Assembly: GCA_000934665.2 (NCBI GenBank)
Contig: KZ538199.1
Location: 1 to 64,000 of the forward strand
Length of the DNA: 64,000 bases
Direction of reading: 5' to 3'
From: Catajapyx aquilonaris
Lineage: Eukaryota
Shown here: one piece after another, positions 15,582 to 62,909 of the stretch
How the letters are laid out: each line of letters begins with the position of its first letter
Numbering within the stretch: the first letter of the stretch is position 1
The notes under the pieces: generated by a model
The model's database searches: none
What the model was told of the DNA's origin: nothing
The model's input: the letters and a program-made list of their open reading frames with translations, nothing else
Program-made: the position numbers and the translations under genes

Positions 15582-15963
15582 ATGATGGAAGACGACGTCT
15601 TTGAGGACTGCCTGGATCCGGTGGAGATGTGCGTTCTGGGCGACGGGCAGCTGCCTGCCGCCATATCCAGCGGCAGCATGCCCAGCAGCATCTTCGTCAG
15701 AGGAAGTGCTGGTGTTCCAGGCCAGGTCCATCGCGGAGGTGCTCGACCCAGGACGTCGTGGCGACGCGACAGCGGATATGAGCCCTCGCCCGGGGAGCTG
15801 TCTTTTCCATTCTCGCAGCCTTGCAGCCCTGGACACTCCAGGCTGGACCCCATCCAACTACAGGGCGACAGTTCCAATGCTCAGGAGGAAGAGGAGACAG
15901 GAAACACAGCCGGAAGGGACTCGAGCCCGCCCGTCACCATTCCACAACCTCCGTTACGTTTCA
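15582..15963 (+). CDS. BH3-only (Bim/Bmf/Bad-like) protein, coding exon 1 (MMEDDVF...PPLRF)
   Basis: Acceptor atctgcag ends at 15558 and ATG is at 15582 in context GCAATG. Contains EDDVF and RRDSGYEPS. Donor TTCA|GTAAGG at 15963/15964, phase 1. Confidence 0.85.
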
Positions 15964-16035
15964 GTAAGGATTCACATAGCTGGTTCTTGTTCGTTTGGAG
16001 TGTGGGGCGACTCATGGGGTATGTCTCTTCCGTAG

Positions 16036-16344
16036 CTCCAGATGCTGAACTGATGGAGTTGGAGAGCGGCTACGCCATGTCTATGCAAGGTGATGACGAG
16101 CTGGGGGCATGTTGTGTTGGTGGGCCCGAGGGCGAACCTCTTCGGAAGATCAAGCGTGCTCCACCCCCGCCCCTGGAGCTGATTCCGATGGAGCCTGATG
16201 ACCAAGGCTACCTGGACGGAGATGGTCTGCTGGACAGTCGTGGGAGCGACGACCTGGAGGCCAGGAGCATAGGCACCCAGACACCCAGCTCCAGCTTTGT
16301 GTTCACCTTCTCACCAGTGCAGGGCACCTATGGCTTCTTTTCAG
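16036..16344 (+). CDS. BH3-only protein, coding exon 2 (MAPK D-motif and LC8 TQT motif)
   Basis: Acceptor tctcttccgtag ends at 16035. Encodes RKIKRAPPPPLELIP and RSIGTQTPS. Donor TCAG|GTAGGC at 16344/16345, phase 1, matching the next exon. Confidence 0.85.
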
Positions 16345-19300
16345 GTAGGCTTGCATTGATTCATTTGTCGGTACCGAGCCTGCACCACACTGATCGAAAG
16401 TTGAATTTTCCGCCAGTATATAGAGCGCGGAGAAAAGTCGTCACGTCGCGTCGGTTTGAACTTGGCCGGGAAAGGGCCCCGATTCAGATTCGATGCATAA
16501 ATCGAATCAGCATTTTTCAAATATGATTGGGAGGGTTTTCAACATACTGGTCGCAGTTGAAGGGCGTAATGTAACATGGAGATGTGTGAGGGTGGGGAGT
16601 CCTTGTCCCGGCGAAGCAATTGGAAATCGTTTCCATATTGACTACCGCCGCTTTTGAAATCCCCTCCCTCCCTGGTGCAGTGGCGGATGGAATCAGTTCC
16701 AAGTCATCTGCTCCGCTGGGAAGCGTCCCCTATACGGAAAACTGGCACGAACATAACGTGACAAAAAAGAAAACGAGCAAAAGAAGGGGCTAACCTCCTC
16801 GTCGGCTCTTCTCGGCCGCCAGCGGGGAGGGAAAATTTTTGGGAAATATTGCCCTCCGATTTACATTCGAAGTTTTTCATTGAAAAAGAAAAGAGCGGCT
16901 GGAGGGGGTGGGTGGGNGGGGGAGAAACGAGGGTATATCGCTCAGCTCATTCGTTTATGTGGAGAATAACCGGGGGGACATAAATATTCGGTCGCCTTTT
17001 ACGATACGTCACTCGGGAGGTGGAAGTAAATGTATTGTGACTGAATGGGCGCCGGATTATGTTTTTGCGAAAGGGAAAGAGGGTAAAGAATAAAAAAATA
17101 TATATATTAGAGTCGAGATTAGGCGAGAGTCCCGCGAGACACTTGGTCCCTGTCATTTTGTCGTAAACACGAAGTCGTAATTCCAGGCCCAGTCCATCAT
17201 ATCTGGGAGCTGTATTTTCCCGCGGACTTATATTATTACGGTTTCCACTTTATCGGGGGGAGGGGTGGGGGGGGGGGGACGTCTTTTCGCATTCCAATGG
17301 ACTCCCACCAAATGAGCCGAAACAGGGCGCCCACCCCCCACACACTCGCATACTAGACCTCCGCATTTTTATGTGGCAGAATGTAAAGTAGCTGGGTTGC
17401 TCGGATTTGGTCCTCGGGAATGTCAAAATAGGAATATTTCGGGCGTGAAAAACTCGCGAAACTTTCTTGGCTGCTTTCCACGATGGTCTTGCGTCATATA
17501 GCTTCTGATGCGTCTGCTATATGTTCAGTAAGAAAATTATAAATTATAATTTATTATATTGTGAATGAAATGTTAATTCATGTTTTTTGATATTGACTGG
17601 CAATGGCGAAGTAAATTGTTCCTGAGGTTCTTTTGAATCGGGCGATGACAGGACAGGTATGGGGGCTGAGGAGATCGTGACTGCATCCTCTTGTCTGTTG
17701 GAAGCTGGTTTTCTTACCAGCTGAAGTCCACACGTGTTCTTTCAATTTGTTGCGGTTGAGTCCTCCCAATCAGTGATTTTCATTCCACCGCACAAAACGT
17801 TATTAAGTCGCTTCGCACAGCCACGGAACGAGCTCTCTAATCTCCTCTGATTGTGTAGATCCTGGGCTTTTTCTCTCTCTCTCTCCCCCCCCCCCGCCCT
17901 CCCCCTATACGTCCCACCCTCATCCCAACTGCTGCACGGCCTTCTTTTATACAAAAAGTGGCAGGCGAACAAAAGCGGACACTGCCAACTGATATTGGAT
18001 TTGTGGATTGGTTCCCTGGGAGTCGCAAAGACAAGATGAGCCTTGAATTTGTGGCGCTATACAGCTCACGTTTACACTCGTCCACATTGTCGGTGCATAG
18101 ATGATGGCCGATATTTTTTTTTGTAGCATTATGGGCATGTTGGCGTGGTTCAAGAAATAAACAAAATGGGCCTGTCTCATATGCTGACAGTTATAGTTGC
18201 GTAATAAGTTATTTGAATAGTGCGGGCCGTACTTGGCGAACTAACCGGTACCTGTACATTAGATGACACAGTGAACTCGGTGAGTTGTGATCGCTTAAAA
18301 GAAAATAGATGCGAGTTTTTTCACGTTTGAAATGGCTACAGGGGGTGCTTGGAAACTTTGCGAATTTAATTGTGAATTTTTATGGCGCAGGTGGCCCCAA
18401 ATATTATGGGGTTTTATATTTGCGCTACACTGGCATTTATTGATATTGCACTATTGCAATACCCGACTGTGCGACCTGTTGCTGGCAGTCGTTTTAAACT
18501 TCGGCTTCAGTTAGCAGTATAAGCAGCTCTGAAAAATTAGTCGGATAAAAATTATTAAACGGCCCATTTAATTTGAAACCAATTAGGAAATTCGTGACTT
18601 TCTCATCCAAATTTTCACAAAGTTAAGAGGAAGACAACTACTGCGTGACTGGACTTTCCATCGATCGCTGCCAGTACATTTTGTATACAGTATAGGATAT
18701 TTGCATCTGAACTACCTCTGTATCCGGATGACTTGCACTGCAATTAGCAACGCCTTGTTAGAAGGATTGTCATTGAAAACTGGGACACTAACGCAGTTAG
18801 TCGACGCAGTTTAAAAATGAATGAAATTAATATGGAGCGTTCCATATTCCGTGTCAACCGAGGAAGGAGGGGGGGGGGGGTTAGAATACTGCATTATCTA
18901 GTCAAGAAAATCTGAATGGTGCATTCAGATGTCACTGGCTGGCGCCTTCGCATATGATCCGTGTCGACCTGCGGGCTCTTAATCCTGCGTTTTCTTAGCT
19001 GCCCTCATGTCGACTGTCAAGATGTCAGCATCCTTGGAAACGAACAAGGATCCCAATTAGACTTGGCCTCTGATAAGCTGGCTGGGAAATCAATCTGGGT
19101 TTTTTTCTTCTTCTTCTTTCCCATCTACCTCCCACCCCCCCCTATACCCCAGCATCTCTCTCTCTTTTTTTTATGGTTCGACTAGTTGGGATGGGTTTTT
19201 GTTTGCGGATTTATTTATGGGGGGGTTAATTTGGCGTTCGACAGAGTGGTTCGGCAGCGGCAAAAAGAGTCCGAAGGCCCTCTTCAGCCGAGGATAAAAA

Positions 19301-19833
19301 GTGTTATTGTGGACGGGAGTTGGGATTTGAGTGGAGCGTTTGATTTAATTCGCCTTGGCAGTGCGTAACTTGTGCTCGATTGTCTCCTGGTGCTTTGGGT
19401 GGTCTCTGGGACTTTTTGTACGCACTTTGGGTAGTCCGGGTTTTATTTTTAATGCGGTGGATTTGTACTGGTGCTAGCAGCAAAGAGTTCAGGGTGTGGG
19501 TATGAAAGTGATAGTTGGATTGCGGAATTTGTGCTTGATTCCGGTTTTGTACTAAGTAGGTACAATGTCTGTCAGGTACTGTACCTGCCTGTGCAGGAGA
19601 TCCGGCAAAATATCCGGGGATAGGGCAGTAGTGACGGCTTGCGGGGACCGTTGACTAAAAATGGCGACGGAAATGGTCAAACCTCCGCATAATCGAGTAA
19701 GAATTTTGACGCTATAATATTTTATTATACCATCAAACGACAAGGGACTCGGGGTTATCCCAAACATGTATGTCGTCCGGGTCAATCCGGAGTTAGACAG
19801 TATGTACGAACAGTACAGTACAACATTGATACC

Positions 19834-22800
19834 GGTTCATACTGGCAATCCGTCTAGGGCCTATTGGCCGGGTCGACCCTTGAAGTCCCTGTCTAAGTGC
19901 GCACTCATCATTTACAAGTACAGTACTGTATCAATGCTGCTTATGTTATGGATACACGCCGCCAGGTGACAGCATGTTACCACGACCATGCCGAGGAGTG
20001 TAACAGCGCCTCTGGCGAGGGCATCAGTCGGTCAGAGAAGCGTCCTTGTTGGCGTTTTCGATGTGTGCTGACCTTCTGCCCCGGGGGGCTCTCACCGGAC
20101 TTGCGGACTATTGGCGACTTGACTTAGAAAGTGGGAACTTTTGTGCTCGGAAAACCAGTCATCAGTGGTGAATCCAAGCAATAGTGGGGCCGGCCCAGGG
20201 CAGACCACGTGGGTTCGGACTCCGGAGCCATGGGTGGAACCAGCGGGGGACCGATACAGTTTGATCCCGCAGATGGTCCAAGCTACGCTGGCGTCGGCAG
20301 AGAGGTAGGACGTAGGAGCCAGGGGCGGACAAGGGGCAAAAGGGGGGGTGTGCGGAAGGGCAGGGTTGGGGCAGTTGGGGGTGGGTGGGTGGGTGGAAGA
20401 GAGGCGTGCAGGCATGCATAGACCAGAATATCAAAGATGGCTGGATTTGGAAGATCAAAGATTGCGGTATTGGTCTTTTGGACCTGGCAACCTTTGTGAT
20501 TTCAGGTTAGGTTTTGGCGGGTTTTGCCAACGGATAAGGTGATTCAAACTAGCAGGAGTTGTCAGAGGTGTTCCTGTACATCAGCAATGCGACTTAACGT
20601 TGTGTCGTGGTTGTGGCAGTAGGCCACGTGCACCAAAAGGAAGGTTCATACTGGCAATCCCGGGCAAACCTAAGTGCGCACCCACCGGCACCCACCAATT
20701 GTACGGTACTGTAGCAATGCGGCTTATGTTTTGGGTGTACGCCACCAGGTGACAGCGTGTTACCACGACCCCACGACCACGAGGAGAAGTGTAACAGGCT
20801 AACAGCGCCTCTGGCGAGGGCATCAGTCAGTCAGTCAGTCAGAGAAGCGTCTCTTCCTCGAGGTCTTCCTGCATTTTGCGTGTAATGTATTGGTCGATGT
20901 AACCCTTTGCCGAGCCCTTTGCGCTTGGGTTTTCGGTGTGTGGTGTCCTTCTGCCCGAACTTCTGCCCGAACTTGTTGGCGACTTGACTTTAGAAGTGGG
21001 AACATTTGTGACTGGAAAACCAGTCGTCAGTGGTGAATCCAAGCAATATTGGGGCCGGACCAGGGCAGACCACATGGGTTCGGACTCCGGAGCCATGGAT
21101 GGAACCAGCGGGGGACCGATACTGTTGGATCCCGCTGATGGTCCAAGCTATATGAAGGCGTCGGCAGAGAGGTAGGAGCCAGGGGCGGACAAGGGGCAAA
21201 AGGGGTGTGTGCGGAAGGGCAGGGTTGGGGGTGGGTGGGAGGGAGGGAGGGAGGGAGGGAGAGATGGCGTGCAGGCATGAATAGACCAGAATATCAAAGA
21301 TGGCTGGATTTGGAAGATCAAAGGATTGAGGTGTTTGTCTTTTGGGCCTGGCAACCTTTGTGACGTCAGTCGATCAATATTGCTTTCGCTTAGGTTTTGA
21401 CGGGTTTTTCCAACGGATAAGGTGACCGTTATTTTCAAACTTGCAGGAGTTGTCAGAGGTATTCCTGTACATCAGCAATGCGACTTAAGGTTGTGTCGTG
21501 GTGGCAATAGGCTACGTGCACCAAAAGGAAGGTTCATACTGGCAATCCCGGGCAAACCTAAGTGCGCACTCAGCAATTGTACGGTACTGTAGCAATGCGG
21601 CTTATGTTATGGGTATACGCCACCAGGTGACAGCGTGTTACCACGACCCCACGACCACGAGGAGAAGTGTAACAGCGCCTCTGGCGAGGGCATCAGTCAA
21701 TCAGTCAGAGAAGCGTCTCTTCCTCGAGGTCTTCCTGCATTTTGCGTGTAATGTATTGGTCGATGTAACCCTTTGCGCTTGGGTTTTCGGTGTGTGGTGT
21801 CCTTCTGGCCCCGGGGCGGGAGGGGGGCGGCTCTGACCGAACTTGTTGGTGACTTGACTTTAGAAGTCGGAACATTTGCTACTGGAAAACCAGTCATCAG
21901 TGGTGAATCCAAGCAATATTGGGGCCGGACCAGGGCAGACCACATGGGTTCGGACTCCGGAGCCATGGATGGAACCAGCGGGGGACCGATACAGTTGGAT
22001 CCCGCTGATGGTCCAAGCTATATGAAGGCGTCGGCAGAGAGGTAGGAGCCAGGGGCGGACAAGGGGCAAAAGGGGGGTGTGCGGAAAAGCAGGGTTGGGG
22101 TGGGTGGGTGGGAGGGAGGGAGGGAGAGATGTCGTGCAGGCATGCATAGACCAGAATATCAAAGATGGCTGGATTTGGAAGATCAAAGGATTGAGGTGTT
22201 TGTCTTTTGGACCTGGCAACCTTTGTGACGTCAGTCGATCAATATTGCTTTCGCTTAGGTTTTGACGGGTTGTTCCAACGGATAAGGTGGCCGTTATTTT
22301 CAAACTAGCAGTTGTTGTCAGAGGTATTCCTGTACATCAGCAATGCGACTTAATGTTGTGTCGTGGTTGTGGCAATAGGCCACGTGCACCAAAAGGAAGG
22401 TTCATACTGGCAATCCCTGGCAAACCTAAGTGCGCACTCAGCAATTGTACGGTACTGTAGCAATGCGGCTTATGATATGGGTGCACGCCACCAGGTGACA
22501 GCATGTTACCACGACCACGAGGAGAAGTGTAACAGCGCCTCTGGCGAGGGCATCAGTCAGTCATTCAGAGAAGCGTCTCTTCCTCGAGGTCTTCCTGCAT
22601 TTTGCGTGTAATGTATTGGTCCATGATTGTAACCCTTTGCGCTTGGGTTTTCGGTGTGTGGTGTCCTTCTGGCCCCGGGGCGGGAGGGGGGCGGCTCTGA
22701 CCGAACTTGTTGGTGACTTGACTTTAGAAGTCGGAACATTTGTGACTGGAAAACCAGTCGTCAGTGGTGATTCCAAGCAATATTGGGGCCGGACCAGGGC

Positions 22801-23219
22801 AGACCACATGGGTTCGGACTCCGGAGCCATGGATGGAACCAGCGGGGGACCGATACAGTTGGATCCCGCTGATGGTCCAAGCTATATGAAGGCGTCGGCA
22901 GAGAGGTAGGAGCCAGGGGCGGACAAGGGGCAAAAGGGGGGTGTGCGGAAGGGCAGGGTTGGGGGTGGGTGGGAGAGATGGCGTGCAGGCATGCAGAGAC
23001 CGGAAGATCAAAGATTGCGGTGTTGGTCTTTTGGACCTGGCAACCTTTGTGACGTCAGTCGATCAATATTGCTTTCGCTTAGGTTTTGGCGGGTTTTCCC
23101 AACGGATAAGGTGACCGTTATTTTCAAACTAGCAGGAGTTGTCAGAGGTGTTCCTGTACATCAGCAATGCGACTTAACGTTGTGTCGTGGTTGTGGAAAT
23201 ATGCCACGTGCACCAAAAG
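19834..23219. repeat. Intronic tandem array of four ~810-890-bp units
   Basis: GGTTCATACTGGCAATCC starts at 19834, 20643, 21531 and 22399, and the last unit ends at GTGCACCAAAAG (23219). The ORF track shows the same peptides recurring (e.g. MAPESEPMWSALVRPQYC). Confidence 0.95.
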
Positions 23220-23309
23220 CCGTAATGGATGTATTGTCGTTTTAAGTTGAAAAAACTGCTGGTACAGTGAAGAGTAATTAAACCGTATTATAGTGTTTTT
23301 ATGTGGCTG

Positions 23310-23383
<74 letters not shown>

Positions 23384-23510
23384 GCAGCAGCAGCAGTAAT
23401 AATAATAGCAATAGTAGCAGTAGTAGTAGTAGTAGTAGTAGTAGCAGTAGTAATAATACTTAGCAATAGTACCAGTAATCATAATAATAGCAATAGTAGC
23501 AGTAATGATA
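23310..23510. repeat. Compound microsatellite (TAG)n/(TAA)n/(CAG)n
   Basis: Directly visible trinucleotide runs. Confidence 0.95.
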
Positions 23511-23577
23511 ACCACCAAAAACATTTCTGTAAAAAAGGCCAAGTTCTCCTGACTGCTTGGTCGTCAAAAGTGGTGAC

Positions 23578-23936
23578 ATCTGAAATACGGCCAAGTTAAA
23601 CGTCGTACTCATTACTGGCATTCTTAAATAATTCTTCAACCTAAACCACTAACTTTATTTTTCCAGATCGACCTTAAGTTTAATCATCAAAAAATTTTAA
23701 TGTAATTTCTCCTGATGTCACTTGGCCATTGCTCTTAAAACATTGAAACAGTTGTAGAATTCAACAATATCTCGGACATGAGCAATGGCCAAGTGACATC
23801 AGGAGAAATTACATTAAAATTTTTTGATGATTAAACTTAAGGTCGACCTGGAAAAATAAAGTTAGTGGTTTAGGTTGAAGAATTTAAGAATGCCAGTACT
23901 GATGAGTACGACGTTGAACTTGACCGTATTTCAGAT
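23578..23936. mobile_element. Foldback element / long inverted repeat
   Basis: 23578-23734 is the near-perfect reverse complement of 23780-23936, with a 45-nt spacer. Confidence 0.85.
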
Positions 23937-23949
23937 CTCCGTGCCCCCT

Positions 23950-23983
23950 AATAGCAATAGTAGCAGCAGTAGTAGTAGCAGCA

Positions 23984-24040
<57 letters not shown>

Positions 24041-24108
24041 TAATAATAGTATCAGTAATAATGATGATGAAAATAAGCCTGCTGCTGTTATTGTTGTTGT
24101 TGTTGTTG

Positions 24109-24178
<70 letters not shown>
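23950..24178. repeat. Compound microsatellite (AAT)n ... (TTG)n(TAT)n
   Basis: Directly visible trinucleotide runs. Confidence 0.95.
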
Positions 24179-24179
<1 letters not shown>

Positions 24180-24274
24180 GGGTTTGCACGGACATTGATC
24201 CATCAGTACCTAACTCAAGCTGCTGTGATATACCCTAAGTTACGATATATCTCATGCTCACCTGCAATCCAGGA

Positions 24275-24435
24275 GTGCGATTCAAATTTTTGGAGGGTGG
24301 CTGCTGACGAAAGGAAGGCGCCCAAACCTTCTCGGCTGGCAACGACGTCGTTTCTTGCCGCCCACCGACATGGGAAAGACATTTACTCCCAACTTGGGCA
24401 AGTCATTTGGACCAATAATTGGAATAATACTTGTG
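24275..24435 (+). repeat. Chimeric local duplication of three downstream segments
   Basis: 24275-24302 = 25375-25402 (28 bp); 24303-24415 matches 27143-27255 (113 bp, 4 mismatches); 24421-24435 = 27345-27359 (15 bp). Confidence 0.9.
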
Positions 24436-27400
24436 GGGGACTGGATTTTAGCTGCTCCATATATCAATTTCGGCTCCAATAATTAAGTGTCTCAGCGCAT
24501 TCGATCTCATTTCGATCAGTTTTTAGACTTATAACCCTTAATTATAGTTATTTGCCTCTTTCTATTTTTTTTTTTTTTAATCCATGAAATTCCTCTCAAC
24601 TGTAGCGCCACGGAGTGGGCAGGCAGTCAAACACGAAGGAGCAGAGTTGTAGCGGCCAGAATGTTGCAAATTTGAGAATATGGTTGTTGTTTTTACGTTT
24701 GAAATGGCCACCAAATGCGACAGGAACCTGCAAAGTATATTAATAAATTTAATATTCGTGGCATTCGTAGATGATTCCCTATTTTACAATCTTCTTAGCT
24801 GAAACTGATCTCAATGAATTTTGAATAGTTATCCACGTGCCAGCATTTTCGAGAAATATGAGTAATAGGTTGATATCACTGTACTACTCAAGCCTGCTTG
24901 ACTCACAGTCTGCTTGAACAGTTGAACCGTAATATACGTTTCAGCGATATGCGGTTCAGTCTCATGTTACAGCACGCGAGAATGATCACGGGGACCCGGT
25001 TTCCCTTTTGACACACAACGTCATTTGGTTAAAAGTGCAAGAAAACTACAGGCAGGTCGTTTGAACCACGAAGTGTGAACATCGGAGAAGGATAATTCGA
25101 GAGCCGAGCACACGCGCTGGAATAAAAGCGTGTAATATCCTAATGGAGAAACCGAGATGGGCACGTCAAACGCACTCGCAGAGAGAATGATAATAATGAG
25201 CGAAAGAGAGTATCCGGGAGGTCTTTTGTGGATTGTGCATTCATACGTGGATCAAAAGCAGGCGACTGACGAATGTTGGCAAGCAATGCGCCCAAAAAAG
25301 AGGAGACAAAAGGCCCATCGATCACCCCCAACGCTGTTCAGTCACGCTCCGGTGTCCATTGACTCTGCATTTCTGTGCGATTCAAATTTTTGGAGGGTGG
25401 CTTCTGGGTGTGCGTTAGGTTGTAAAAACAAGTCACCTGTTTGGGCAACTTGACTGCTGGGGACGATCAGCGATAAGGAGATAGTGTGCACATGTATATA
25501 TATAGGGAAGCAGCGGTGGCAAGCGATGATGAGTCGGATAATGATGATGAGAGAGTGGCCGCGGGACTTGTCCAATGGCTTCCATAACACCATATCAGAG
25601 CCGGCGCATATAAAGTCATGCGAGTTGTGGCCTTTAGGGCTGGCGCGTTAGGGGCTGCCACACTTTATGCTGGCCATCAAGTCCAAATCAAGCACAAATT
25701 CATGCAGCGTCCTGCGCTCCCTTTACGACGCCTCCTCTGCATGGGCCCATGCTGGCTGCTGGGGGGGATTTGCTGCTGTTACTGCATCTCGTGCAGGGGG
25801 CCAGATATTGCCACCTTTGGGAATGACCTGGGTCATCCACAAAACGCTGCGTCGCTATTATGGCACGCAGATTGTGAGCCCGGAGAGGGCGAAGGGCGGG
25901 ATTTTTATTATTTTTTTTATTTTTTGTAATGGGCGCGTGCACTTTGTATGCATTCTGGTATTGTGGAGCAAGAAGACGGGCTCATGTGAGCAATCATGGG
26001 GGTGTGTGGGTATCTACCCCGAATGGACGATATCAGTCATGGTTATAAGGAGTGATGCATGCGGGGCTGGCCAGGGGCCCCCAGTAACATTTTTATTGAC
26101 ACCATTGATATTTGGCAGGTTTATGGGTGTTTCACATGGGGACGTGGCGCGGCTATAAGGTTTAGGCATGACGGTGCTGGGGAGGCAAGCGGAAGATGGC
26201 CGTGTTATATCCACCCTATAGCTTTTCATCTTCTCTCCTCGGCAGCAGAAGATGCTTTCTGGGCGATTGATTTTAATTGATCGTGGCTTGGCTGTTCGCC
26301 TCTTTTTTTTCACCCCCTCTCCGGCTATCATATCTGCTCCCCAAACCTTATGAGGGAGCTGTAAAAGGGGTTTATGGGCCGCCACACCAAGCTGCTGATG
26401 AAGCTCCAGTTGGGGTAGATATATGTAGGGGGACACCCTCTTGGGCTGTACGACAGCGCCCACAACCGGGACCCCGCCGATGGGGCTTTTATTTTATTTT
26501 ATTAGGTTGACTGGGATCCTGTATAGCAGTCCCCTGCCTCATATTCCCAATGGACTTCGGCTATCTATCGCCAGCCATCATTCTTTCCTCGGCATCATTC
26601 CGGACGTGAATTCCGCTCGTTGCTGCCGACGGGAGCCCCCCCTCTCTTGCCCTCCTATAAAAAGGACTCGTACTCCAGCAAGTAACAACTCCATGATCCA
26701 ATAAGCAGGATTTTCTCAACCTCGAAGGTCATTCTCTTTTAAACCTACTCAACCGGCGTAATTGAAGCGGAACAAGTGATAAAGTAGCGCTTTTAAAACG
26801 GACGGAATGGTCGCTTTCAAATTATGACCGCTGCCGGTACGGTCGAGTCAGCTCAAAGTGTGTGTACAAGGTGATCATTAAGTTGCGCAACAATATAGTG
26901 GCGAGCGAAGGAACGTAGTGTGGGTAGACAATGGCGAGTAGAGGGAAATGTCGTGTGGAGGCGAGAAGCGGAAGGGCTTTTTATCTGGTGTCCCTTTTCC
27001 CGGAGTCCAAAAGGCCGGAAGGCGAGCTTGGAGAGGAACGGAAACGAGCCCAAGGATTGTTGCCACCCTCCGCGGCCAATATTCATTGGGCGAATTTTCT
27101 TCCCCGCGTTTTCTGTGTAGCCTGCCAGAATGCTCGCATTCCGCTGACAAAAGGAAGGCGCCTGAACCTTCTCGGCTGGCAACGACGTCGTTTCTTGCCG
27201 CCCACCGACATGGGAAAGACATTTACTCCCAACTTGGGCGAGTCATTTGGACCAACAAGGGAAGATGGTCGGGCGCGATAAGGAAGGCCGTATTTCGAAT
27301 CGCACCACAGTATAAAACAGTAACGCACTTCCATCTGGGTGCCGGGAATAATACTTGTGTCAAGTCAGCCATTTCATATCAGGAAGAGGGGAGGTGAGGG

Positions 27401-29347: not shown

Positions 29348-29535
29348 ACGGTTCTCCAGCAGGAGGAGGCCACATGTCTGTAAGCAGCCCAGTTCTTCCA
29401 CTGCCCGATCTGGTTCCGGAGGCCTTCTCTGATCATCGTCGTCGCCGCTCGACGACCCGAAGCTGCCCAGAGGTGGAAGGCCGCACCCTCCGCATCCTTG
29501 GCGACGACCTGGACCTGTCTCGGGCCGCCGATTTG
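29348..29535 (+). CDS. BH3-only protein, coding exon 3 (BH3 motif)
   Basis: Acceptor ttattttcag ends at 29347 (phase 1, G+AC = Asp). GC-rich coding-like island encoding HRRRRSTTRSCPEVEGRTLRILGDDLDLS, i.e. LxxxGD at 29488-29505. Donor TTG|GTGAGT at 29535/29536, phase 0. Confidence 0.88.
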
Positions 29536-30098
29536 GTGAGTCACCTTGCTTGCCCGTTTCGTTTATTGGCCGGGGTCCCTGTCCGAACTGGTTGCTGACG
29601 TTGAAAGGATGCCTCCATAAAGCCCGCGGTTTTATGTCCGCGCCTAGACATGTGGGGTAATTATAGGTGTCGTTACTGCGAAAGTCCCTGCGTTTCCAAG
29701 TGAATCCGCACCCCGACTTTATTAAGGCAGTATAAATAAATCATATCGGCCATCACTCGGGAGGGGTTTCATGACTCGGGATCCGGCTCCCATTACAATC
29801 TCTCTTAACCGGGGTTTCATCATGGCGCCCCATTAAAAGGCTTGTTTCGACAGGCCCGGCAATTTGGGGGCCGTTCAGACAGAAATGCACGCAACATGCA
29901 CCCGGGAAAACCTATTGACATCCATCCGTGATTGCTGCGTTTGTGAAATTAAACTAAAATGGGTATAGCCACCCAATTCGGGGTCCTCTCGAATGCAGCG
30001 TTTTTTTCGGGGCCCGGTGTACAACCCGGTTGCATCAATCAACGTGGAATTAACTATTTAAATTCCAATTATCCTAGCGCGCCCGAGTGGGCAAGAAA

Positions 30099-30169
30099 CT
30101 CGGGGGAAAATACCGTGAATGACCCCCGTCGTTGCTCGGGCAAAATACCGGGGATGACCCCCGTCGTTG
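30099..30169 (+). repeat. Two-copy ~35-bp tandem duplication
   Basis: CTCGGG..AAAATACCG...ATGACCCCCGTCGTTG occurs at 30099-30134 and 30135-30168. Confidence 0.8.
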
Positions 30170-40465: not shown

Positions 40466-40884
40466 CAGGGTGATTCCAGTATCTTTGGCAAAAATCACAG
40501 GGTGGGTAGAGGCCCCATAGGCAAGTATTTTGAGCTTCGGTACCCATGTCCGGAAATGCCCCCATACGGCGGTACGGCCGTTTCACCTTTAGTATGTTGC
40601 GCCTGGTGGGTAGGCAACCCATCATATTCGAAGGTTGCGTTCATCAGGTTTTGCACTTGACACTCGCAATTGTTTTTACCTTCGTCTCATCCACACGCGA
40701 CACACCTGATGAACGCAAGTTTCGAGTACGGTGGGTTGCCTACCCACCAGGCGCAACAGACCAAAGGTGGAAACGGCCGCACGTACGGGGGCATTTCCGG
40801 ACATGGGTACCGAAGCGCAAAATACTTGCCTATGGGGCCTCGACCCACCCTGTGATTTTTGCCAACGTTGACGGAATCACCCTG
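40466..40884. mobile_element. Palindromic Tc1/mariner-type MITE
   Basis: TA|CAGGGTGATTCC...GGAATCACCCTG|TA. Arms 40466-40649 and 40704-40884 are complementary along nearly their full length. TA duplication at 40464-40465 and 40885-40886. Confidence 0.92.
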
Positions 40885-52800: not shown

Positions 52801-55800
52801 TGGTAAATTTATTTCGGCTCTCTTGTTCGGAACGGTCAGTTTCCATAATATATTCAGTAGGCAACAATGACTCAACAATGTGTGACGTCAGTATACGATT
52901 CAAAGGTAGCTTGGCGCATGCATTTTACGCTTGAGATATGACCCTCGATCGAGCCTTTGTAGCGAGTGATATTTGTGTGTTAGGTGTCCGAGTGGTATGC
53001 CACCGAGCATAACATTGTATTGGGGGGCGGGGGGGATAGATCGAGGAGGGGGAGAGACCTTGTTGAGATTCTGGAACGGACAGGACGGTAACCTTAATTC
53101 GGGAAATCCTATCTGCGGAGATTGGGCCGGATTGTGACTCGCTTGGATTCTTCCCCTCGCACGCTGGGATAATTTCAATCAAGGAGCATTGGACTGAGCC
53201 GTGTCCAGCGACGAAATCCTGTAACAATCACACCATAATGGAGGGAAGAAAAATGATGAAGATGCTCTAGATCCGTAATCCTTGAGCATATAAGTGTGTA
53301 GTTTCGCTATCAAGATTGAGTTTGGGTTTTTTTTTTGCAAGCTTCTCTCTGCACATTTGGTTGCAGGACCGCACTTTTACGATATGAATGTTCCGGGTCG
53401 GAAGATAATCTGCATCGCAATATGGATGCTTTAGCCGGAGGCAGCAGACGTAATTCCTGTCCATTTCGCGGGATGTCCGAGGTTGGAGGCGAAGCCTGAC
53501 ATTGTGAACTTTCATTAACCATCAGAGATAAAGGGTTGGGAATGGTCGGCGATAAGCTTATTCAGCAGCGGCAGTGCAGAGGGACCGGACAGAAGCAGCA
53601 AACGAAGCCCTACAACAAAGGCACGGCGGCTTAGGTAGAAATGACAATGCCACCAAGAGGACACGTAATGAGTCGGAACAAAAGGGTCCATCTCGAAACA
53701 ATTAAGTGGCAGCTACATTATTTGCGGCGGAGAACAGCCAAGTGACAGGGGCTTCCAATCCTATATGCCACAGCATGCCGGAGCTCCGCCATTAATTTCC
53801 AGACTCATTTCCTATGAGCAGCCGAGATGGAATGATCACTCTTCATCTGTGGGCTCGCAGGAAAAGCTGAAATCATGCGGCGGGTCTTCACCTGACTCAA
53901 AGGGGTTCGACTTCCGTCGATGATCCATCGTGGCGGGGAGGCCGATCTTCGAGATCGTTGGCTTGATCCAGAGTGGTGGGTGTTTGTGTGAGACTGTATA
54001 CACATTGACAGTACAGCAGCGGGTTGGGGTAGCCTCAAAGCGGCCTATATACACCCTACACTTGACTAGTGTATCTGTTGGAGAGGGGAAGAAAGATTGA
54101 TGAGCGGCGTCATTAGGGCCTTATCGCGCCCCGATTTGTCCCCGAGTCACCCGCCCCAAATCACCATGGACACTAAATGGAGGACATCGTGCACTCGGAG
54201 GCTGCCGGAACGTGGTCTTCATTTGCGATCCCATTATGCAGCAGCCCTATGGACGTGACTCCACTTCCCTACTGCCGACTTACTCCGATCTGTCATCATC
54301 ATTCAGATGTGTGTTTACTTGGGGGTCAGCTGCTGTCCGGCGACCTGTTTTGCCCGATTTGATACTTGCTAGCAAACACCAGAACCTGTTGTGGAGCGTT
54401 GTTTGCAATTCGCATGTATACTCCCCGGTATAAGGTTGTTTAAAAAAATTATACGAGAGGTTCCGTGGGTACATGAGCATGCAGTTGGCAATATTTGGCA
54501 TAAAGGCTAAGAATAGCCTGTGAAGTAATGAGCAAGCGGAGTCCGACCGTGTGCGTATGGGTGGGCGGATTGGCGCGTGGGCCATATGTGGGAAGAATGA
54601 TGGTATCATATAGCAGTTGGACATGTCCGTAATTGCAGCACGCGTCCACCCACATGACTTGTCCACATAATCACTCACTGCGTTTTTAGTGGGTGCAAAT
54701 TACATGCTGCTAATCCTGCCCCTCATTTTCTGCCATCATGTCGACTTAATAAGTACAATATTGGCAGCAATTTTCCTTCGGAGGGGCCACGTTTCATATT
54801 TAGGCTAGCGTCTGAAAAATGGGTATAAAGTAGTGTGGCTGCCCCCCCCCCTCCCCCCCCAGAAAACACAAGCTGGTGATCTATGGCGCACCTGCACCAA
54901 TTCCAACCCCCGCCACCGATCCGGGCTGCGTTTGGAAGCCATATTAAACAGCATATGCAGAGGGCGCGATCCGGGCTCTAGAGGGTTAGGCAATGATGAT
55001 GGCAGTCATTGTTCGGATGGCTGGCTTTATTTGCCGCGCCTAATGATCCAAAATGACTGACAATTCGAGGAGGAGGAGGAAGAGCTCGGTGCTGCTGGAT
55101 TGGGACAGAGCTGGAGCGGCTCTCTGGACCCCATGGACAACAGTTGTTGGGTAGGGAGTGGGTGGGAGGGAGGGGGGGGGGACTGCTGCTGATGCCTAAT
55201 GATGCCCCCCTCAATGGAGTTAGTGAGCGAATGAGTGCTGGCGGAAAAAAAGGGGAAAAAATCCGATATGTCATGATGGGTGGGGGGTGAAGGAGATCGC
55301 CCTCCCCATAATCAGCCATTATTCATTCCCACCACTCGATCGGCTCGCGTTGGAACAAAGCCGCGGGCTACCAGGGCAGGTGCCACTAATTAACCCGCGC
55401 CCCCCACCCTCCCACCTCGACGCACCCCAATGCACACTCTTGTCTACAAATCACAATATCGACGTATCCGTGAAAATTCGGGGGCTTGACCATATGCTGA
55501 AAAGGTTAGGACCTGTTCGAAAGTGGCATACGTCGCACTTGTTGGTAGCAAGTAGTACATAGCCGCTTCCTAAAGTTATACAATCTGGCCTGTATTGCCG
55601 TCTAGGGAGCCGTAATGATCCGAAAGCGTTTGGGGAAAGAAAGAAAAAACGCGGCGTGACGTCACGAAGTGAGACACCATATGTGAGGAGGCGACAACCT
55701 TACGGTCCAGTGGACAGCGCTTAAAGGACGTCAATTGGCGTTTGGGGTGACAAGTAATGGGAAGACATTGGCTCACCCTCTCCTTTTATTTTATTAATGC

Positions 55801-58800: not shown

Positions 58801-61800
58801 CCTTGTGTCGTGAGGGGGCATTAAAGGTGCTGGCCTAGCCCCAATTTGGTGGGTATTGGAGAGGGTGGGGGGTACAAAGGGGGAGGGAGGTCCACGTGGC
58901 AGCAGGCACTCTTTTGACACATTGCCTGCTGCTACTAATTACCTCCTAATGTGCCATTCTCACGTGCCTTGTGCTCGAATGCCCTCTTGTCTCACCTGTC
59001 GCGCTCTGGCCAGCACGCGTTTCCTTGCTCCATCAACACTTTTGGCCATGATGAGACGAGGTGCCATGCTAGTGTCCTCACCAGTGGGGGACAGATGGTC
59101 GCACCTTAGCACTAGCATAGAGAACAATTTGAGGGAAGGAAAAAAAATCAATTGCAGAATTTCCCCACGTGGTTCGATTTTTTTTTTTTTTTTTTTTTTT
59201 GCTGAGAATGAGGATGGGGGAAGGAATAGGGGAGAGGGGGAAGCGAATAATTTTGGGTGCATCTCCAGCCCCTCTTTTGGGCGTCAACTAAGTGTCGAGG
59301 AGCTGTCGGGGGACATTGTGTCATTAGAGAAGAGTGCAGTCTGACGGCCACCTCCTTTTTTCTCTTTAATAACCAANGGTTGTGTCGTCCCCCCACCCCC
59401 CACCCCCATGACACTCCCTATTGTGTTTTGGGGGCGCATAAAAGCCCGTGCTCGTTTGAGCATGGCGCCAACAAATTAATTGCTTAATTCCCAAAGTGAT
59501 TTAATTAGCGCTCTTACGCATCCGCACGTGAAGAAGAGTGCCTTTCAGCCACCGCATTTCCGACGGTTCACTTGTTAGCCAATGGGCCAATTTGGGGAAT
59601 GTGTGTCCAGATATGTCGCCAGAAATTGTTGTGGATGGACGGTCGAAGTGGTGGTTTCCGTGCGTTCATTTGCTAATGACGAAAATCGCTCACACACTCG
59701 TGGAAGTTGTGAGTAAGGGCGTATATGCAAAGTATCTTTGTAGTGCAGTTAGCCAGGGGCAGATATGTCCGGCCGTGTGAAAGACGACAGTTGCCAGTGT
59801 TGTTTCGGGCACCTCCTTGGCCGCGGGGTCACATCTGCTCCGACCAACGAACCGACCATCCGAATTACGCGGACCAGTGACTCCCACTGCCCTTATTCCT
59901 ATTCTGTGTTCTTTGTGCGGACCCAGTTCCACAAACACGCTTCCGATGCGATTTTCACAGGCGCCCCGAGGCAACCCCAGTTTTCCTATCAACTGTTCTG
60001 ATAGTACGGATTTTTATCCCCCTATGCCATTTTTCCGGGGGGGGTTTTCTTTTGGAGGGTTTGGGATTTTTTTTTCCATTTTTTGAGCGGAATATGCACA
60101 GTGGGTTGTTGGGAAGAAAAATGGAGCAATGATGGTTTGCAAGGTGACGTGTTCCGACTTATATGGGAGGTGGGAGTGCTGCTACATTTCGAGTAGTTGA
60201 ACTCCAATTATGATAATAGCTCCTTAATAGGATAAAGAGTTGGTAACAATATGGTTGATGATTGCCCAGTGGTTTCTAAGCGAGCCATCTGCTGACCACC
60301 CGATATTAATTCACGGATAATTTGCGAAGAGTTTTGCGAGGGGATTCCCGGGGCGCATGCGTCCCCCGTTTTTTTTATATTTTTTGCGCCAGTCATACGC
60401 ACATGTGACATATGTTGAGCCTCGCCCATATAATTATAGGCGTACGTATGAAATAATCCAATTGTAAAGAGATAGTTGCGCGGAAACTCGTGAAAAATTG
60501 TCCTAATCTCCTTCGTAATCAGTTCTCCGAATTTATACCATATTAGTGACATGCTTTCTGTTTTTTTGCCGTTTTTTTTTTCTTCTTTGCGATGATGGCA
60601 CCAACCCGCTTATTAACTTACGCACTGCTCATTTTTTTTCACCACACGTCACCGCATATTTTTTTGACTCTTCCCGAGGGGGCGTCCTGATCATCAACGT
60701 TACGCGAATGTAATTGCGATTAATGAGGAGGACTCACGGCCAAGAGTGGAATTTTTTATTGCTAGTAGGCATGCTACTAGGCAAATTTCAGTGGTGGAAA
60801 TGAGTGGGTTTCAAGGCTTTTGGACTGTTGTATTTAACCTCCAATCGCATTTTTTTTGCGTGTTTGATGGCGCTAAACGACAGACGTTAATGTGTATTGA
60901 GATTTATGTGAACCAGAGCTTTAGATTATTGAAAATTACGTGATATATACACAGCATATGATGATGAATCAAATATGGTCGGTCCTTATAGGACCCAAAC
61001 ATGGTGTTGGTCCGTGGTACAATTGTTTTAGTTGGATGCACTGTAACATTGCGCGCATGATGAATAGACACTGTGGAGACATTAATTTAAGCACATGTAA
61101 CTCATAGCATGTGGGGACAATATTACGAGATTTATATGCCTGCATGAGTGGGCGAGGGATAATTTCCACTGGGAAATAACGACTTGGGTCGCAATTTGCG
61201 GGAGTTCAGGAAATGAGTGTTGAATGTTTGGATCCTCGGAACGAAAGGACGGAGTCAAATCAATTCTGGGGGAGAATCGAGAAGGATCATTTATCAGAAT
61301 GTCGTGTCCCGGATCAGCGTGTAAGTCCAGGGTACATCCACTCCCGACTGATGAAATTTCCTGGGCAGATATACACATGTCGCAAATCACGCCTTCACTT
61401 TCGGATGGGGAGAGAATAAGAAAAGAAAAGGAACTGCTACCGGATTCAACATGCTGGGCACGCATTATTGCGCTTCAGGGCTAGGGGAAAAAAAAGCAGC
61501 ATGTTATACAGTAACTTGCTTGACTGAAAACCCAAGTTGTAATACTGTAGTAGTAGCAGTTTTTGTGGCAAGAGAAGATGTGGTCACGTCCAGCAAGAAG
61601 TGTCCCGAGGCTACTGGTCAGCTTATCCTGGCCCATAATTACCTCAACCGGTTAGGTAGTTTTTTTCTGTACTTTTTTTTGTGTAACTGCTTGGCGGCTA
61701 CTGTGCTACCCTTCACGTCATGACTTCCACGAATTGCTCGCGCCCAACCCTGTCATTACTCACTTCTCGAGCATATCATATTGGTTCAACCCTGGCCTCC

Positions 61801-62720
61801 TCTTCTCTTCTCTCTTTTTTTTCCACTCAGCTAGTACATTTTGCTACATCTCTTGGTTGGGTGTTGTAGTGTTGCTGTGGACAAGGAGGGCAAATTGGAT
61901 CGGTTGGCATGAAAATGGCGGCATCCATCTCATGCGAACTGCGACAGCTGTGTGAATTTGTGCGGTTGGAAGAGATCAAAGGAACCACCGCTTCACCACA
62001 TTGGTTTCCACAAAAAAGCATTACACGCTGGGAATGTGCCATCCAAAAGGCCCCCTTCGCCAACTCGCCATTTGGCAGCGGAGTTGGGGACAGATATTGA
62101 CTTTTAAGGCCGCTCAATTAGTCGCACATGACTGAATCATATTGCGACGCTTCACATGTTCAGTGCTTGTATAAAATGATGCTGGATAGTATTTAATTGC
62201 TGTATATTGCGAAATTTTTGTGCAGGAAAAAAAAACGCAAGTAATCTACCCTCATATAGAGGTGGTGGAATCGGGCGTGTGACACTTATCGAATGTTCTG
62301 TAGTCCAGCCTGAAAGGCAGACGCATAATGCCCAGGGCCCCTATGAATGTGTGCGGATGAGATGAGAAGTTAATGGAGGTGGTACGGCACCCCCCCTGAG
62401 AAAAGTAAACCCAAGATATCCAAGCCGACTCGAATCGCCTGCCCTTTCAGCAGGGGCCAGTTTGACCTGCGTCTCTGCCCGCCTGATTTGCATATGAGTA
62501 CACTGCTGCTCGGTTACTTATCAAAAAGCAACTGAGTTCTAACCAGTTTCCAAGTGTCCCCGGGGCCATTACCTCCCTTCTGCAACCATGAACCCTTCAA
62601 GTTTTTTTTTAAGTTTTTTTTTGTACAGTGTAAAGGCGGGGTGTTACGTGACATCGCAGTGCAAAATGCAAAATGAAGCTTTCCCGGCATAACTAAGCGT
62701 ATCCTTGTTTGTCGTTCCAG

Positions 62721-62909
62721 AACCGAGAGGTGTATAACGAGGATGACCCCCGTGCTGAGAACGGCATCGCTTGGGGTAGCCTGAGCCTGTCTTTTTTGTG
62801 GAGCTTTGGGCGTCAGCAGGAGGACCAAGAAGAGCAAGAGGATGGGCCGTTGCCCCGTCCGCCTCGGGGCCGCCCCAGGAGCCGCTCCGTGGGTGCCTTT
62901 ATCTCCTGA
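62721..62909 (+). CDS. BH3-only protein, terminal coding exon (NREVYNEDD...SVGAFIS*)
   Basis: Acceptor atccttgtttgtcgttccag ends at 62720, phase 0, matching exon 3. GC-rich coding-like island with a short hydrophobic stretch GIAWGSLSLSFLWSFG and RGRPRSRSV. Stop TGA at 62907-62909, followed by AU-rich UTR-like sequence. The total CDS is 1068 nt (355 aa). Confidence 0.75.
   Translation, partial: NREVYNEDDPRAENGIAWGSLSLSFLWSFGRQQEDQEEQEDGPLPRPPRGRPRSRSVGAFIS

Follow-up and report, generated by a model that had tools for sequence, protein, structure and literature searches.

BH3-only proteins are stress sensors that start Bcl-2-controlled apoptosis, and, to our knowledge, they are largely unidentified outside vertebrates and nematodes, a few single cases apart. 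A 64,000-nt stretch of a Catajapyx aquilonaris contig (the window) raises the question of whether it holds an overlooked gene for such a protein. An earlier interpretation, made from the DNA letters alone (the sequence-only reading), had proposed one and had regarded BH3-only proteins as rarely described in non-nematode protostomes, a view that is partly dated since such proteins have been validated in Schistosoma (PMC7022251) and in Drosophila, where the protein is named Sayonara (PMC10107002). In molluscs, no BH3-only protein had yet been identified according to PMC8917759, and PMC8998228 reports that orthogonal searches over protostome branches failed.

Gene model and coding evidence

The locus probably represents a four-exon gene of approximately 47 kb with a 355-aa product, as judged from the DNA (Table 1). 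With GT...AG at each junction, exons of 382, 309, 188, and 189 nt join into 1068 nt (355 codons plus TGA) with intron phases of 1, 1, and 0, which confirms the proposal that four segments are linked by GT-AG introns in these phases into a stop-free frame of 355 aa; all junctions and the frame were rechecked. The splice sites are near-consensus and all four exons are intact, the generic scores of intron 1 being weak (donor 0.24, acceptor 1.2), and exon 3 has in-frame alternative acceptors at 29360 and 29363. Exon 1 encodes the acidic N-terminus of the product. Since intron 1 is in frame and free of stops, exons 1 and 2 share one stop-to-stop ORF of 353 aa (15465-16526), the longest of the window's 161 ORFs with 90 aa or more (runner-up, 227 aa), and retention of this intron would add 24 residues, mostly hydrophobic. 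The introns are very large for such a coding length. Intron 2 contains a tandem array of four copies of an approximately 866-bp unit (approximately 19.9-23.3 kb), together with tri-nucleotide microsatellites. The first AATAAA past the stop is a weak candidate for a polyadenylation signal, as this hexamer occurs as often as 86 times in the window.

Table 1. Features of the candidate gene and its product, in window coordinates (a slash marks the exon boundary)
Feature	Position	Strand	Details
Coding exon 1	15582-15963	+	ATG at 15582, second ATG at 15585; 127 codons + 1 nt; donor /GTAAGG
EDDVF	15588-15602	+	exon 1
Intron 1	15964-16035	+	72 nt; GT...AG; phase 1; in frame, no stop
Coding exon 2	16036-16344	+	309 nt; donor CAG/GTAGGC
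LC8/dynein-light-chain-type motif RSIGTQTP	16263-16286	+	residues 204-211; exon 2
TQT anchor	16275-16283	+	
Intron 2	16345-29347	+	13.0 kb; phase 1
Coding exon 3 (second-to-last)	29348-29535	+	188 nt; acceptor TTATTTTCAG/, donor /GTGAGT
Basic Ser/Thr cluster RRRRSTTRS	29437-29463	+	5 residues upstream of the BH3-like 13-mer, 13 before the core Leu
BH3-like 13-mer EGRTLRILGDDLD	29476-29514	+	residues 274-286
BH3 core LRILGDDL	29488-29511	+	
Intron 3	29536-62720	+	33.2 kb; phase 0
Coding exon 4 (terminal)	62721-62909	+	189 nt: 62 codons + TGA; acceptor TTGTCGTTCCAG/
Hydrophobic patch IAWGSLSLSFLWSF	62766-62807	+	14 residues, 309-322 of 355; exon 4
RGRPRSRS	62865-62888	+	basic tail of exon 4
First AATAAA past the stop	63176-63181	+	267 nt downstream; possible polyadenylation signal, weak

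Base composition and codon usage both distinguish the exons from their surroundings. The GC content of the four exons is approximately 0.60-0.64 (0.617 in exon 1 and 0.595 in exon 2), compared with 0.40-0.51 in the flanks and 0.49 in 15963-16037, which covers intron 1 and three flanking nucleotides. Ten islands in the window reach a GC content of at least 0.62, four of which are the exons, while a single tandem repeat accounts for four others and the last two are non-coding and rich in homopolymers. Codon models were cross-trained, such that exons 1 and 2 served to score exons 3 and 4 and vice versa. Under the exon 3-4 model, exon 1 scores +24.4 bits, with the remaining five frames negative, and exon 2 scores +31.9 bits, whereas the in-frame codons preceding the ATG (-30.9 bits), the 25 in-frame codons of 15963-16037 (-13.0 bits), and the read-through beyond 16344 (-30.1 bits) are all negative. 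Under the exon 1-2 model, the only positive scores among 41 splice-bounded candidates for an internal exon (+ strand, 16345-64000) belong to the three acceptor variants of exon 3 (+18.3 to +19.2 bits; next, -5.9), and exon 4 is the best of 277 splice-bounded terminal-exon candidates (22.2 bits vs. 3.1 for the next). Exon 3 outranks 383 of 385 stop-free null windows and exon 4 all 385. Stops lie close outside the splice sites of both exons: the ORF in the frame of exon 3 spans 29335-29595 only, and that of exon 4 starts just 24 nt before its acceptor. Neither strand of the window yielded another coding-like segment, and no further convincing one was found in intron 3. Because exons 3 and 4 are the sole strong downstream candidates and each is in the phase required by the preceding exon, the four-exon model is more than a product of chance and is well supported by intrinsic evidence.

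Composition and motifs of the predicted product

The predicted product is acidic (net charge -27) and, by composition only, disordered, with 71.5% disorder-promoting residues. The C-terminal hydrophobic stretch pointed out earlier does exist as a 14-residue patch, with 33 further residues, polar or basic, between it and the C-terminus, but it is not a membrane anchor: this possibility was rejected on a maximum 19-residue Kyte-Doolittle mean of 0.88. The reported absence of BH1 and BH2 segments was borne out, as Pfam returned no family for any exon at E<=10, including Bcl-2 (PF00452), and nothing for the 353-aa ORF of exons 1 and 2 at E<=0.01, while the same library does recover PF00452 in the viral protein used below as a docking partner (E 5.4e-17). 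By the lack of a PF00452 match, the product does not have the helical bundle with BH1 and BH2 that marks the multi-motif Bcl-2 family (Bcl-2, Bax, Bak, and Bok).

Homology searches returned no relatives. The 254-aa reading through exon 1, intron 1, and exon 2 (residues 1-229 plus intron 1) had no match at E<=0.001 among 1,835,955,588 representatives. Word-indexed searches, which also covered exons 3 and 4 with exon-wise queries rather than the joined 355-aa product, yielded 704, 200, and 23 word-sharing candidates but no homologue. Exon 3 matched no PDB sequence at E<=10, Atlas gave no match, and metagenome contigs gave 96 pattern matches, none of which was confirmed.

The BH3-like stretch VEGRTLRILGDDLD is located in exon 3, which encodes the whole motif. 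LRILGD (residues 278-283; 29488-29505) satisfies the minimal BH3 definition, L-X(3)-[G/A/S]-D, given in PMC10107002. In the extended scheme described in PMC9171138, four hydrophobic positions (HP1-HP4) lie on one face of a helix, with an acidic residue between HP3 and HP4 that usually follows a Gly. Three of the four are occupied here by Leu278 (HP2), Leu281 (HP3), and Leu285 (HP4), and Gly282-Asp283, followed by Asp284, fits the acidic position, whereas HP1 falls on Glu274, with Val273 one residue out of register. The motif fits the minimal published definition and the greater part of the extended scheme. The eight-residue core pattern has a single match in the six-frame window, compared with 0.065 expected from 200 block shuffles, which scales to a chance of approximately 2 in 10,000 for 355 residues. 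The neighbouring RRRRSTTRS cluster is a possible target of basophilic kinases, whose consensus we presume it to match.

The TQT motif in exon 2, which the sequence-only reading had underplayed, is of the type bound by the dynein light chain LC8. Its flanks (Pro at +2, Ser at -4, a small, non-bulky residue at -2, and no proline before the anchor) fit the rules of PMC6607443 and are favourable. Position -3 is Ile, not the basic residue preferred in the looser consensus of PMC3078936, and many TQT peptides are reported to fail to bind LC8 (PMC6607443). The product contains a single TQT, whose anchor lies 70 residues upstream of the BH3-like motif, and the probability of finding any TQT in a 355-aa product of this kind is 0.017-0.047. 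Together, the two motifs would point specifically to the Bim/Bmf type.

Docking of the BH3 segment was modelled with residues 30-62 of exon 3 and residues 1-150 of a stand-in viral Mcl-1-like protein, which belongs to the Bcl-2 family by Pfam (PF00452) and has Mcl-1 as its closest solved relative (E 1.2e-19). The complex scored 0.76 compared with 0.02 for the best control. The mark of this test is attained by 51 of the 78 solved complexes and by 2 of the 108 mismatched pairs, and peptides and disordered chains form a class on which the test is unproven. At least 88% of contacts agree between runs, and the partner has a pLDDT of at least 69. In the model, the Asp touches Arg87, Asn84, and Gly86 of the NWGR motif of the partner and the three Leu residues lie in the groove, such that the segment is predicted to dock canonically. 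Because many BH3-groove complexes have already been solved, this pass may reflect only likeness to them. The modelling proposed earlier for the BH3 peptide with a Bcl-2-family protein has thus given the canonical pose, but with a viral stand-in and subject to this reservation. A single-sequence AlphaFold2 model of exon 3 has low confidence (pLDDT 62.8, pTM 0.20) and places short strands, rather than a helix, over the motif.

Comparison with known proteins and alternative explanations

According to PMC12811263, the combination of a dynein-light-chain motif upstream of a BH3 is unique to Bim and Bmf. The candidate resembles them in being disordered as judged by composition, in carrying a putative TQT-type motif upstream of a single BH3-like motif, and in having Thr-Pro inside that motif. 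Bim is reportedly phosphorylated by JNK within its TQT motif, and the N-terminus of Bmf presumably also has EDDVF, the same five residues as in the candidate. Bim additionally has a C-terminal hydrophobic segment for membrane targeting, and no anchor of that kind is present in the candidate. Further differences from both proteins include Ile at -3 of the LC8 motif, Glu at HP1, the very large introns relative to coding length, and the lack of sequence homology to Bim or Bmf detectable in representative, word-indexed, and Pfam searches. The 355-aa product is also longer than human Bmf (184 aa; PMC12811263) and than human BH3-only proteins in general (54-198 aa; PMC7022251). As in multivalent or single-motif LC8 (DYNLL) clients, the TQT anchor of this putative binder sits in a presumably disordered region and is flanked by Pro at +2 and, at -4, by a polar residue (PMC6607443); the product has only one TQT.

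Outside vertebrates, Bim/Bad/Bmf-like candidates have been named in hemichordates, cephalochordates, and echinoderms, the last including proteins of 373 aa in S. purpuratus and 350 aa in A. planci (Suraweera et al. 2022, PMC8998228). Compared by description rather than by sequence, these echinoderm candidates and the present one are of similar length (approximately 350-373 vs. 355 aa) and share predicted disorder, a BH3 on a single exon, and computational status; none of them was among the matches of any homology search carried out here. EGL-1 of C. elegans, the Schistosoma BH3-only protein, the Hydra candidates, and Sayonara likewise have a single BH3 as their only Bcl-2 homology, and act in a pro-death manner via Bcl-2-family partners (PMC7022251, PMC10107002). 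They differ from the candidate in that no LC8 motif is reported for them in the passages of these two sources that were considered, and Sayonara also in its coiled-coil domains (PMC10107002). These proteins are deemed phylogenetically unrelated to each other (PMC8998228, PMC10107002). Since similar echinoderm candidates have already been published and our case is based on sequence and modelling, the weight of the present candidate is limited.

On this evidence, the candidate is a plausible BH3-only protein of the Bim/Bmf type, and a real four-exon gene encoding a disordered acidic protein of that type is the reading that we favour with moderate confidence. The gene model, the motif fit, and the modelled docking speak for the BH3-only interpretation offered by the sequence-only reading, and the missing membrane anchor, Glu at HP1, and the absence of homologues in the searches above speak against it. 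These last two points also fit an alternative in which a real gene specifies a disordered client of LC8, or else a different protein with a regulatory or scaffolding function, and the BH3-like stretch is a fortuitous short linear motif without a Bcl-2 role. BH3-like patterns are degenerate, with poor predictive value and many false positives (PMC9171138), ApoL2 is described as having a BH3-like domain yet not the behaviour of a BH3-only protein (PMC4611713), the product has about twice the length of its human BH3-only counterparts, and docking cannot separate a functional BH3 from a look-alike. However, the scarcity of the core pattern in the shuffled window, its co-occurrence with TQT, and the canonical contacts in the model make a fortuitous BH3 rather unlikely.

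It is also conceivable that the chain is partly wrong, either because exons 1 and 2 form a gene of their own that ends nearby or is spliced to other sequence, with exons 3 and 4 part of a different transcript, or because small or non-coding exons are missing. The junctions are predicted, two introns are long (13 and 33 kb), exons 1 and 2 can be read as one ORF to the stop at 16524-16526, and exon 3 is overlapped by a 156-aa antisense ORF, a local-background model scoring its antisense frame about as high as the sense one (0.058 vs. -0.019 per codon). Nevertheless, both phase matches hold, the negative read-through score disfavours the continuous reading, codon usage is common to both halves in either training direction, and the window offers neither better candidates for exons 3 and 4 nor additional coding-like segments; such an error is therefore improbable. 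The suggestion that there is no functional gene at all, only open frames brought together by chance or a pseudogene in decay, could draw on the missing homologues and the low-complexity sequence, but it is very hard to reconcile with the longest ORF of the window, a strong in-frame codon signal with all other frames negative, four intact exons with near-consensus splice sites, and an exon 1-2 sequence that is identical in contigs from three runs (all of the likely source sample), and we give it very little credence.

Proposed mechanism and significance

For the favoured BH3-only reading, what is observed is the anatomy of the sequence and a coherent gene model, upon which the following mechanism may be proposed. 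In healthy cells, the TQT motif would dock as a beta-strand on LC8, which would dimerise or sequester the protein, and the Thr-Pro within this motif and the basic Ser/Thr clusters beside the BH3 and at the C-terminus would be likely sites of regulatory phosphorylation. Upon stress, the protein would be released or induced, and residues of approximately 270-290 would fold into an amphipathic helix whose Leu278, Leu281, and Leu285 enter the groove of a pro-survival Bcl-2-family protein, with Asp283 pairing with the conserved BH1 arginine, a binding step that is modelled only. Neutralisation of the pro-survival protein would then permit Bax/Bak-type death signalling.

With a BH3 and a dynein-light-chain motif in one protein, such a candidate would offer a directly testable handle on the triggering of the death switch in this lineage and on whether the Bim/Bmf design is ancient. 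True descent of this non-vertebrate gene from a Bim/Bmf ancestor is possible but doubtful. If such descent holds, the design of an LC8-tethered, kinase-released BH3 sensor would be older than vertebrates, and annotation and homology searches would miss such genes since only short motifs and exon layout are conserved. Codon-usage-guided chaining of exons can recover genes of this sort from raw DNA where homology searches fail, and, given true descent, the conserved features could help to track down BH3-only genes still missing in molluscs and other phyla.

Gene model and coding evidence

The four-exon chain that the sequence-only reading had proposed, with matching phases 1, 1 and 0, was reproduced in its coordinates, its GT-AG introns (all three of them) and its 355-codon open frame, the joined exons amounting to 1068 nt, that is, 355 codons plus TGA. 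The donor of exon 2 reads CAG/GTAGGC and that of exon 3 GTGAGT; exons 3 and 4 have acceptors preceded by pyrimidine-rich tracts. The window has a GC content of 0.476 and contains six N runs, none of them within the exons. Because intron 1 is in frame and lacks a stop, exons 1 and 2 lie inside a single stop-to-stop ORF of 353 aa, the longest among the 161 window ORFs of at least 90 aa (runner-up 227 aa). Exon 3 lies in a frame that stays open from 29335 to 29595 only, and the frame of exon 4 opens only at 62697. Retention of intron 1 would add 24 residues, largely aromatic or hydrophobic, within an otherwise acidic disordered protein, and such a form could be an alternative isoform.

Coordinates of the gene model, the landmarks of its predicted product and the repeats in the window (nucleotide positions unless marked as residues)
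Feature	Position	Details
Exon 1	15582-15963	
Intron 1	15964-16035	72 nt
Exon 2	16036-16344	
Exon 3	29348-29535	
Additional in-frame acceptors of exon 3	29360 and 29363	CAGCAG tandem; their use would change the start of exon 3 by 4 or 5 residues
Exon 4	62721-62909	
ORF containing exons 1-2	15465-16526	
Acidic N-terminus with EDDVF	residues 3-7	
RSIGTQTP	residues 204-211	
Basic Ser/Thr cluster RRRRSTTRS	residues 261-269	
BH3-like 13-mer	residues 274-286	EGRTLRILGDDLD
Exon 3/4 junction		6 residues past the BH3 13-mer
Hydrophobic patch	residues 309-322	IAWGSLSLSFLWSF
Basic tail with RGRPRSRS	residues 342-349	
Inverted repeat	847-1655	near-perfect; 307-nt arms, 98% complementary; 195-nt spacer
Second pair nested in its loop	1149-1213/1273-1337	
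Repeat pair	4008-4256 and 7854-8101	92-96% alike, 3.85 kb apart
Perfect (ATT)n	4334-4394 and 8181-8238	about 20 units, one after each copy of the pair
Tandem array inside intron 2	19918-23264	about four copies, unit ~866 bp, 63-99% alike
Microsatellite cluster	23310-24180	GTA, TAA and TTA; imperfect inverted repeats around its core
Hairpin core of the cluster	23630-23884	105-nt arms, 99% complementary

Since 47 kb contain AG and GT dinucleotides by the thousand, some open chain can always be assembled, and the model needs tests that are independent of the motif, and the exon tests were accordingly chosen to ignore BH3. The GC content of the four exons is 0.60-0.64, compared with 0.40-0.51 in their flanks and 0.49 for the 75 nt of 15963-16037 (intron 1 plus three flanking nucleotides). 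A 186-nt sliding window over the 64 kb revealed ten islands with a GC content of at least 0.62, comprising the four exons, four islands from one ~866-bp tandem repeat at 20-23 kb and two homopolymer-rich non-coding stretches.

A forward codon model was trained on exons 1 and 2 only, with local composition as background, and applied to the other half of the gene. Exon 4 outscored all 385 stop-free 62-codon windows drawn from both strands elsewhere in the window and exon 3 outscored 383 of them, each lying above all 62 null windows with a GC content of at least 0.56; an antisense frame of exon 3 scored slightly higher than its sense frame (0.058 vs -0.019 per codon). Exons were then enumerated on the plus strand downstream of exon 2, using generic, hand-set splice weights that make this step a coarse filter. 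Among 41 internal-exon candidates with passable splice scores, a positive coding score was obtained only for exon 3, in its three acceptor variants (+18.3 to +19.2 bits; next candidate -5.9), all of which match the phase required by exon 2. The 277 terminal-exon candidates were topped by 62721-62909 at 22.2 bits (second, 3.1), and its phase is the one required by exon 3.

In the reverse direction, under a model trained on exons 3 and 4 only, the proposed frame reached +24.4 bits in exon 1 and +31.9 bits in exon 2, with the five remaining frames all negative. Negative scores were also returned for the in-frame stretch upstream of the ATG (-30.9 bits), for intron 1 (-13.0 bits) and for read-through past 16344 (-30.1 bits), so the other half of the gene supports the start codon, intron 1 and the donor of exon 2 alike. 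Several further stretches were considered as exons and rejected: 30261-30567 and 38034-38395 are homopolymer-rich, 55061-55141 is GAG-rich and has no acceptor, and the GC islands at 20-23 kb are part of the tandem repeat.

Words from exons 1-2 occurred in five sequencing runs, none of them listed as an RNA run: four are DNA runs from what is likely the source sample, and the remaining one, of unknown kind, contains next to none of the words. DNA contigs of three runs match 14320-16910, which spans exons 1-2, without difference, while a fourth run gave no contig there; they probably derive from the source sample and do not constitute independent evidence, and the lack of variants or joints in this interval carries no information on splicing or selection. 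Taken on the exon tests, it is highly probable that the gene is real and that its exon chain is essentially the one proposed.

Repeats and CpG content in the window

The window contains several repeat structures. The pair at 4008-4256 and 7854-8101 either reflects a local duplication or consists of two repeat-element copies, and the inverted repeat at 847-1655 is a MITE-like or foldback element. Each copy of the tandem array inside intron 2 carries a G-rich tract (GGGTGGGTGGG...), and four of the window's ten GC-rich islands belong to this array.

The observed/expected CpG ratio, calculated in 2-kb bins, is 0.41-0.61 in positions 1-12000 and 0.69-0.97 in 12001-64000, a region that includes the gene. 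This sharp change near 12 kb could mark the boundary between a methylated and an unmethylated domain, and the pattern hints at a mosaic-methylated, non-vertebrate genome. In the first 12 kb no gene was recognized, the only Pfam match being a sub-threshold one to G-patch (E 0.005, 1897-2352, minus strand).

The motifs of the product and the search for relatives

The predicted product is rich in Ser (42), Pro (39), Gly (39), Asp (30), Leu (29), Arg (29) and Glu (28) and has a net charge of -27, and disorder-promoting residue types make up 71.5% of its length. No segment of the 355 residues reaches transmembrane-level hydropathy. The peptide VEGRTLRILGDDLD is indeed present in exon 3 and the TQT in exon 2, as the sequence-only reading had claimed. 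An identical EDDVF occurs near the N-terminus of vertebrate Bmf.

The motif, which in the gene model lies wholly within exon 3, satisfies the minimal BH3 definition, L-X3-[G/A/S]-D, given in PMC10107002. The scheme in PMC9171138 has four hydrophobic positions (HP1-HP4) and one acidic, the latter usually preceded by Gly; HP2, HP3, HP4, Gly and Asp are all found here, while the HP1 position is occupied by Glu274, which adjoins Val273. A stricter 8-residue core pattern, built from a PROSITE-type signature, matched once across the six frames of the window, compared with a mean of 0.065 in 200 block shuffles. PMC9171138 also cautions that such patterns predict BH3 function poorly, and the motif match by itself is therefore weak evidence.

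The LC8 motif is described in PMC6607443 as eight residues with a TQT anchor at -1 to +1, with preferences for Pro, Asp or Glu at +2, for hydrogen bonding at -4 and for a large basic side chain at -3, and as disfavoured by prolines before the anchor or a bulky hydrophobic residue at -2; many TQT peptides fail to bind LC8. In RSIGTQTP the anchor fits these rules, as do the Pro at +2, the Ser at -4, the Gly at -2 and the lack of any proline ahead of the anchor; the Ile at -3 departs from them. The chance of any TQT in such a product is 0.017 from its own composition and 0.047 from the six-frame rate of the window. The TQT peptides of Bim and Bmf occur in LC8 papers. Because a TQT-Pro is followed by a core BH3 within a single product that is disordered by composition, the predicted protein leans towards the Bim/Bmf type specifically.

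Searches for relatives covered several collections. A word-indexed search of 5.8 billion clusters returned no relative for the 254-aa exon 1-intron 1-exon 2 reading at near lengths, nor for exons 3 and 4 among longer proteins (E ≤ 10), and phmmer found nothing for the 254-aa reading among 1,835,955,588 representatives at E ≤ 0.001. In Pfam, the four exons matched no family at E ≤ 10, and only chance matches below threshold were obtained for the 115 window ORFs of at least 100 aa searched together with exons 3 and 4, and for the 122 flank ORFs of 50-99 aa, so that no conserved gene was recognized elsewhere in the window by this route. PDB sequences gave no match to exon 3, the protein Atlas no relative, and Rfam no match across the window; none of 96 pattern matches in metagenome contigs was confirmed as a relative. 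Since there was no self-match either, the product is absent from the predicted proteins of the searched collections, for which, at least, the description of the gene as unannotated fits. On paper the working of the candidate resembles that of Bim and Bmf, whereas phmmer and Pfam did not place it with them by homology.

Similar candidates are already in print. PMC8998228 describes candidates from echinoderms that are 350 and 373 residues long and have their BH3 within one exon, like the present product in size and character and likewise computational, and also names hemichordates and cephalochordates, with lophotrochozoans "potentially present". BH3-only proteins have been validated in nematodes, schistosomes and Drosophila, with candidates in Hydra (PMC7022251 and PMC10107002), and none has been identified in molluscs according to PMC8917759. 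In the literature searched, whose coverage was limited to partial texts, no BH3-only protein from outside the vertebrates was found to be reported with an LC8 motif.

Docking to a viral Bcl-2 homologue and a possible mechanism

As a partner for docking, a degenerate BH1-signature pattern was run against a viral contig collection, giving six loci (a stricter BH1 pattern gave none). One of these, a 178-aa protein on a 208.5-kb contig (L005, 933-1466, minus strand), matches Pfam Bcl-2 (PF00452) with an E-value of 5.4e-17 and 62.6 bits against a cut-off of 31.4, and its nearest solved relatives are Mcl-1 chains (E 1.2e-19). An uncultured large virus encodes this Mcl-1-like Bcl-2 homologue, whose BH1 motif reads NWGR and which ends in a hydrophobic C-terminal tail.

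The pairing of BH3 with a Bcl-2 protein that the sequence-only reading had envisaged was modelled with this viral stand-in (residues 1-150) and residues 30-62 of exon 3. The three runs scored 0.76, 0.77 and 0.76 (best control 0.02), values that measure model confidence, for a peptide or disordered chain, a class outside the validation of the test, and for a partner from another host; of 78 solved complexes 51 attain the score mark of the test, as do 2 of 108 mismatched pairs. Contact agreement among runs was at least 88% and partner pLDDT at least 69. In the models, the BH3 Asp contacts Arg87, Asn84 and Gly86 of the partner NWGR, and three BH3 leucines (Leu278, Leu281 and Leu285) lie against Leu44, Thr73, Val77, Val89, Leu91 and Phe94; the confidently modelled contacts are textbook BH3-groove contacts. 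Since many BH3-groove complexes have been solved, this favourable outcome may show mere BH3 likeness, and the docking counts as modest support. AlphaFold2 of exon 3 alone, in single-sequence mode, is too uncertain to argue either way (mean pLDDT 62.8, pTM 0.20), its low-confidence model drawing residues 25-32 as a helix and the BH3 as two short strands.

Stress kinases phosphorylate Bim inside its TQT motif. By analogy, the product may be a disordered stress sensor that would be held or dimerized on LC8 via RSIGTQTP, be released possibly by phosphorylation at the Thr-Pro of this motif, and perhaps be restrained by basophilic kinases at its Arg-rich Ser/Thr clusters, and in the free protein residues ~270-290 would then fold as a helix within the groove of a pro-survival member of the Bcl-2 family. 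Groove binding by the BH3 segment comes from the docking model; beyond this and the anatomy of the product, we infer the steps from the biology of Bim, Bmf and Bad. A BH3-only function of the Bim/Bmf type is plausible and somewhat favoured; taken together, the motifs, the exon layout and the docking allow an experimental test that would be both sharp and cheap.
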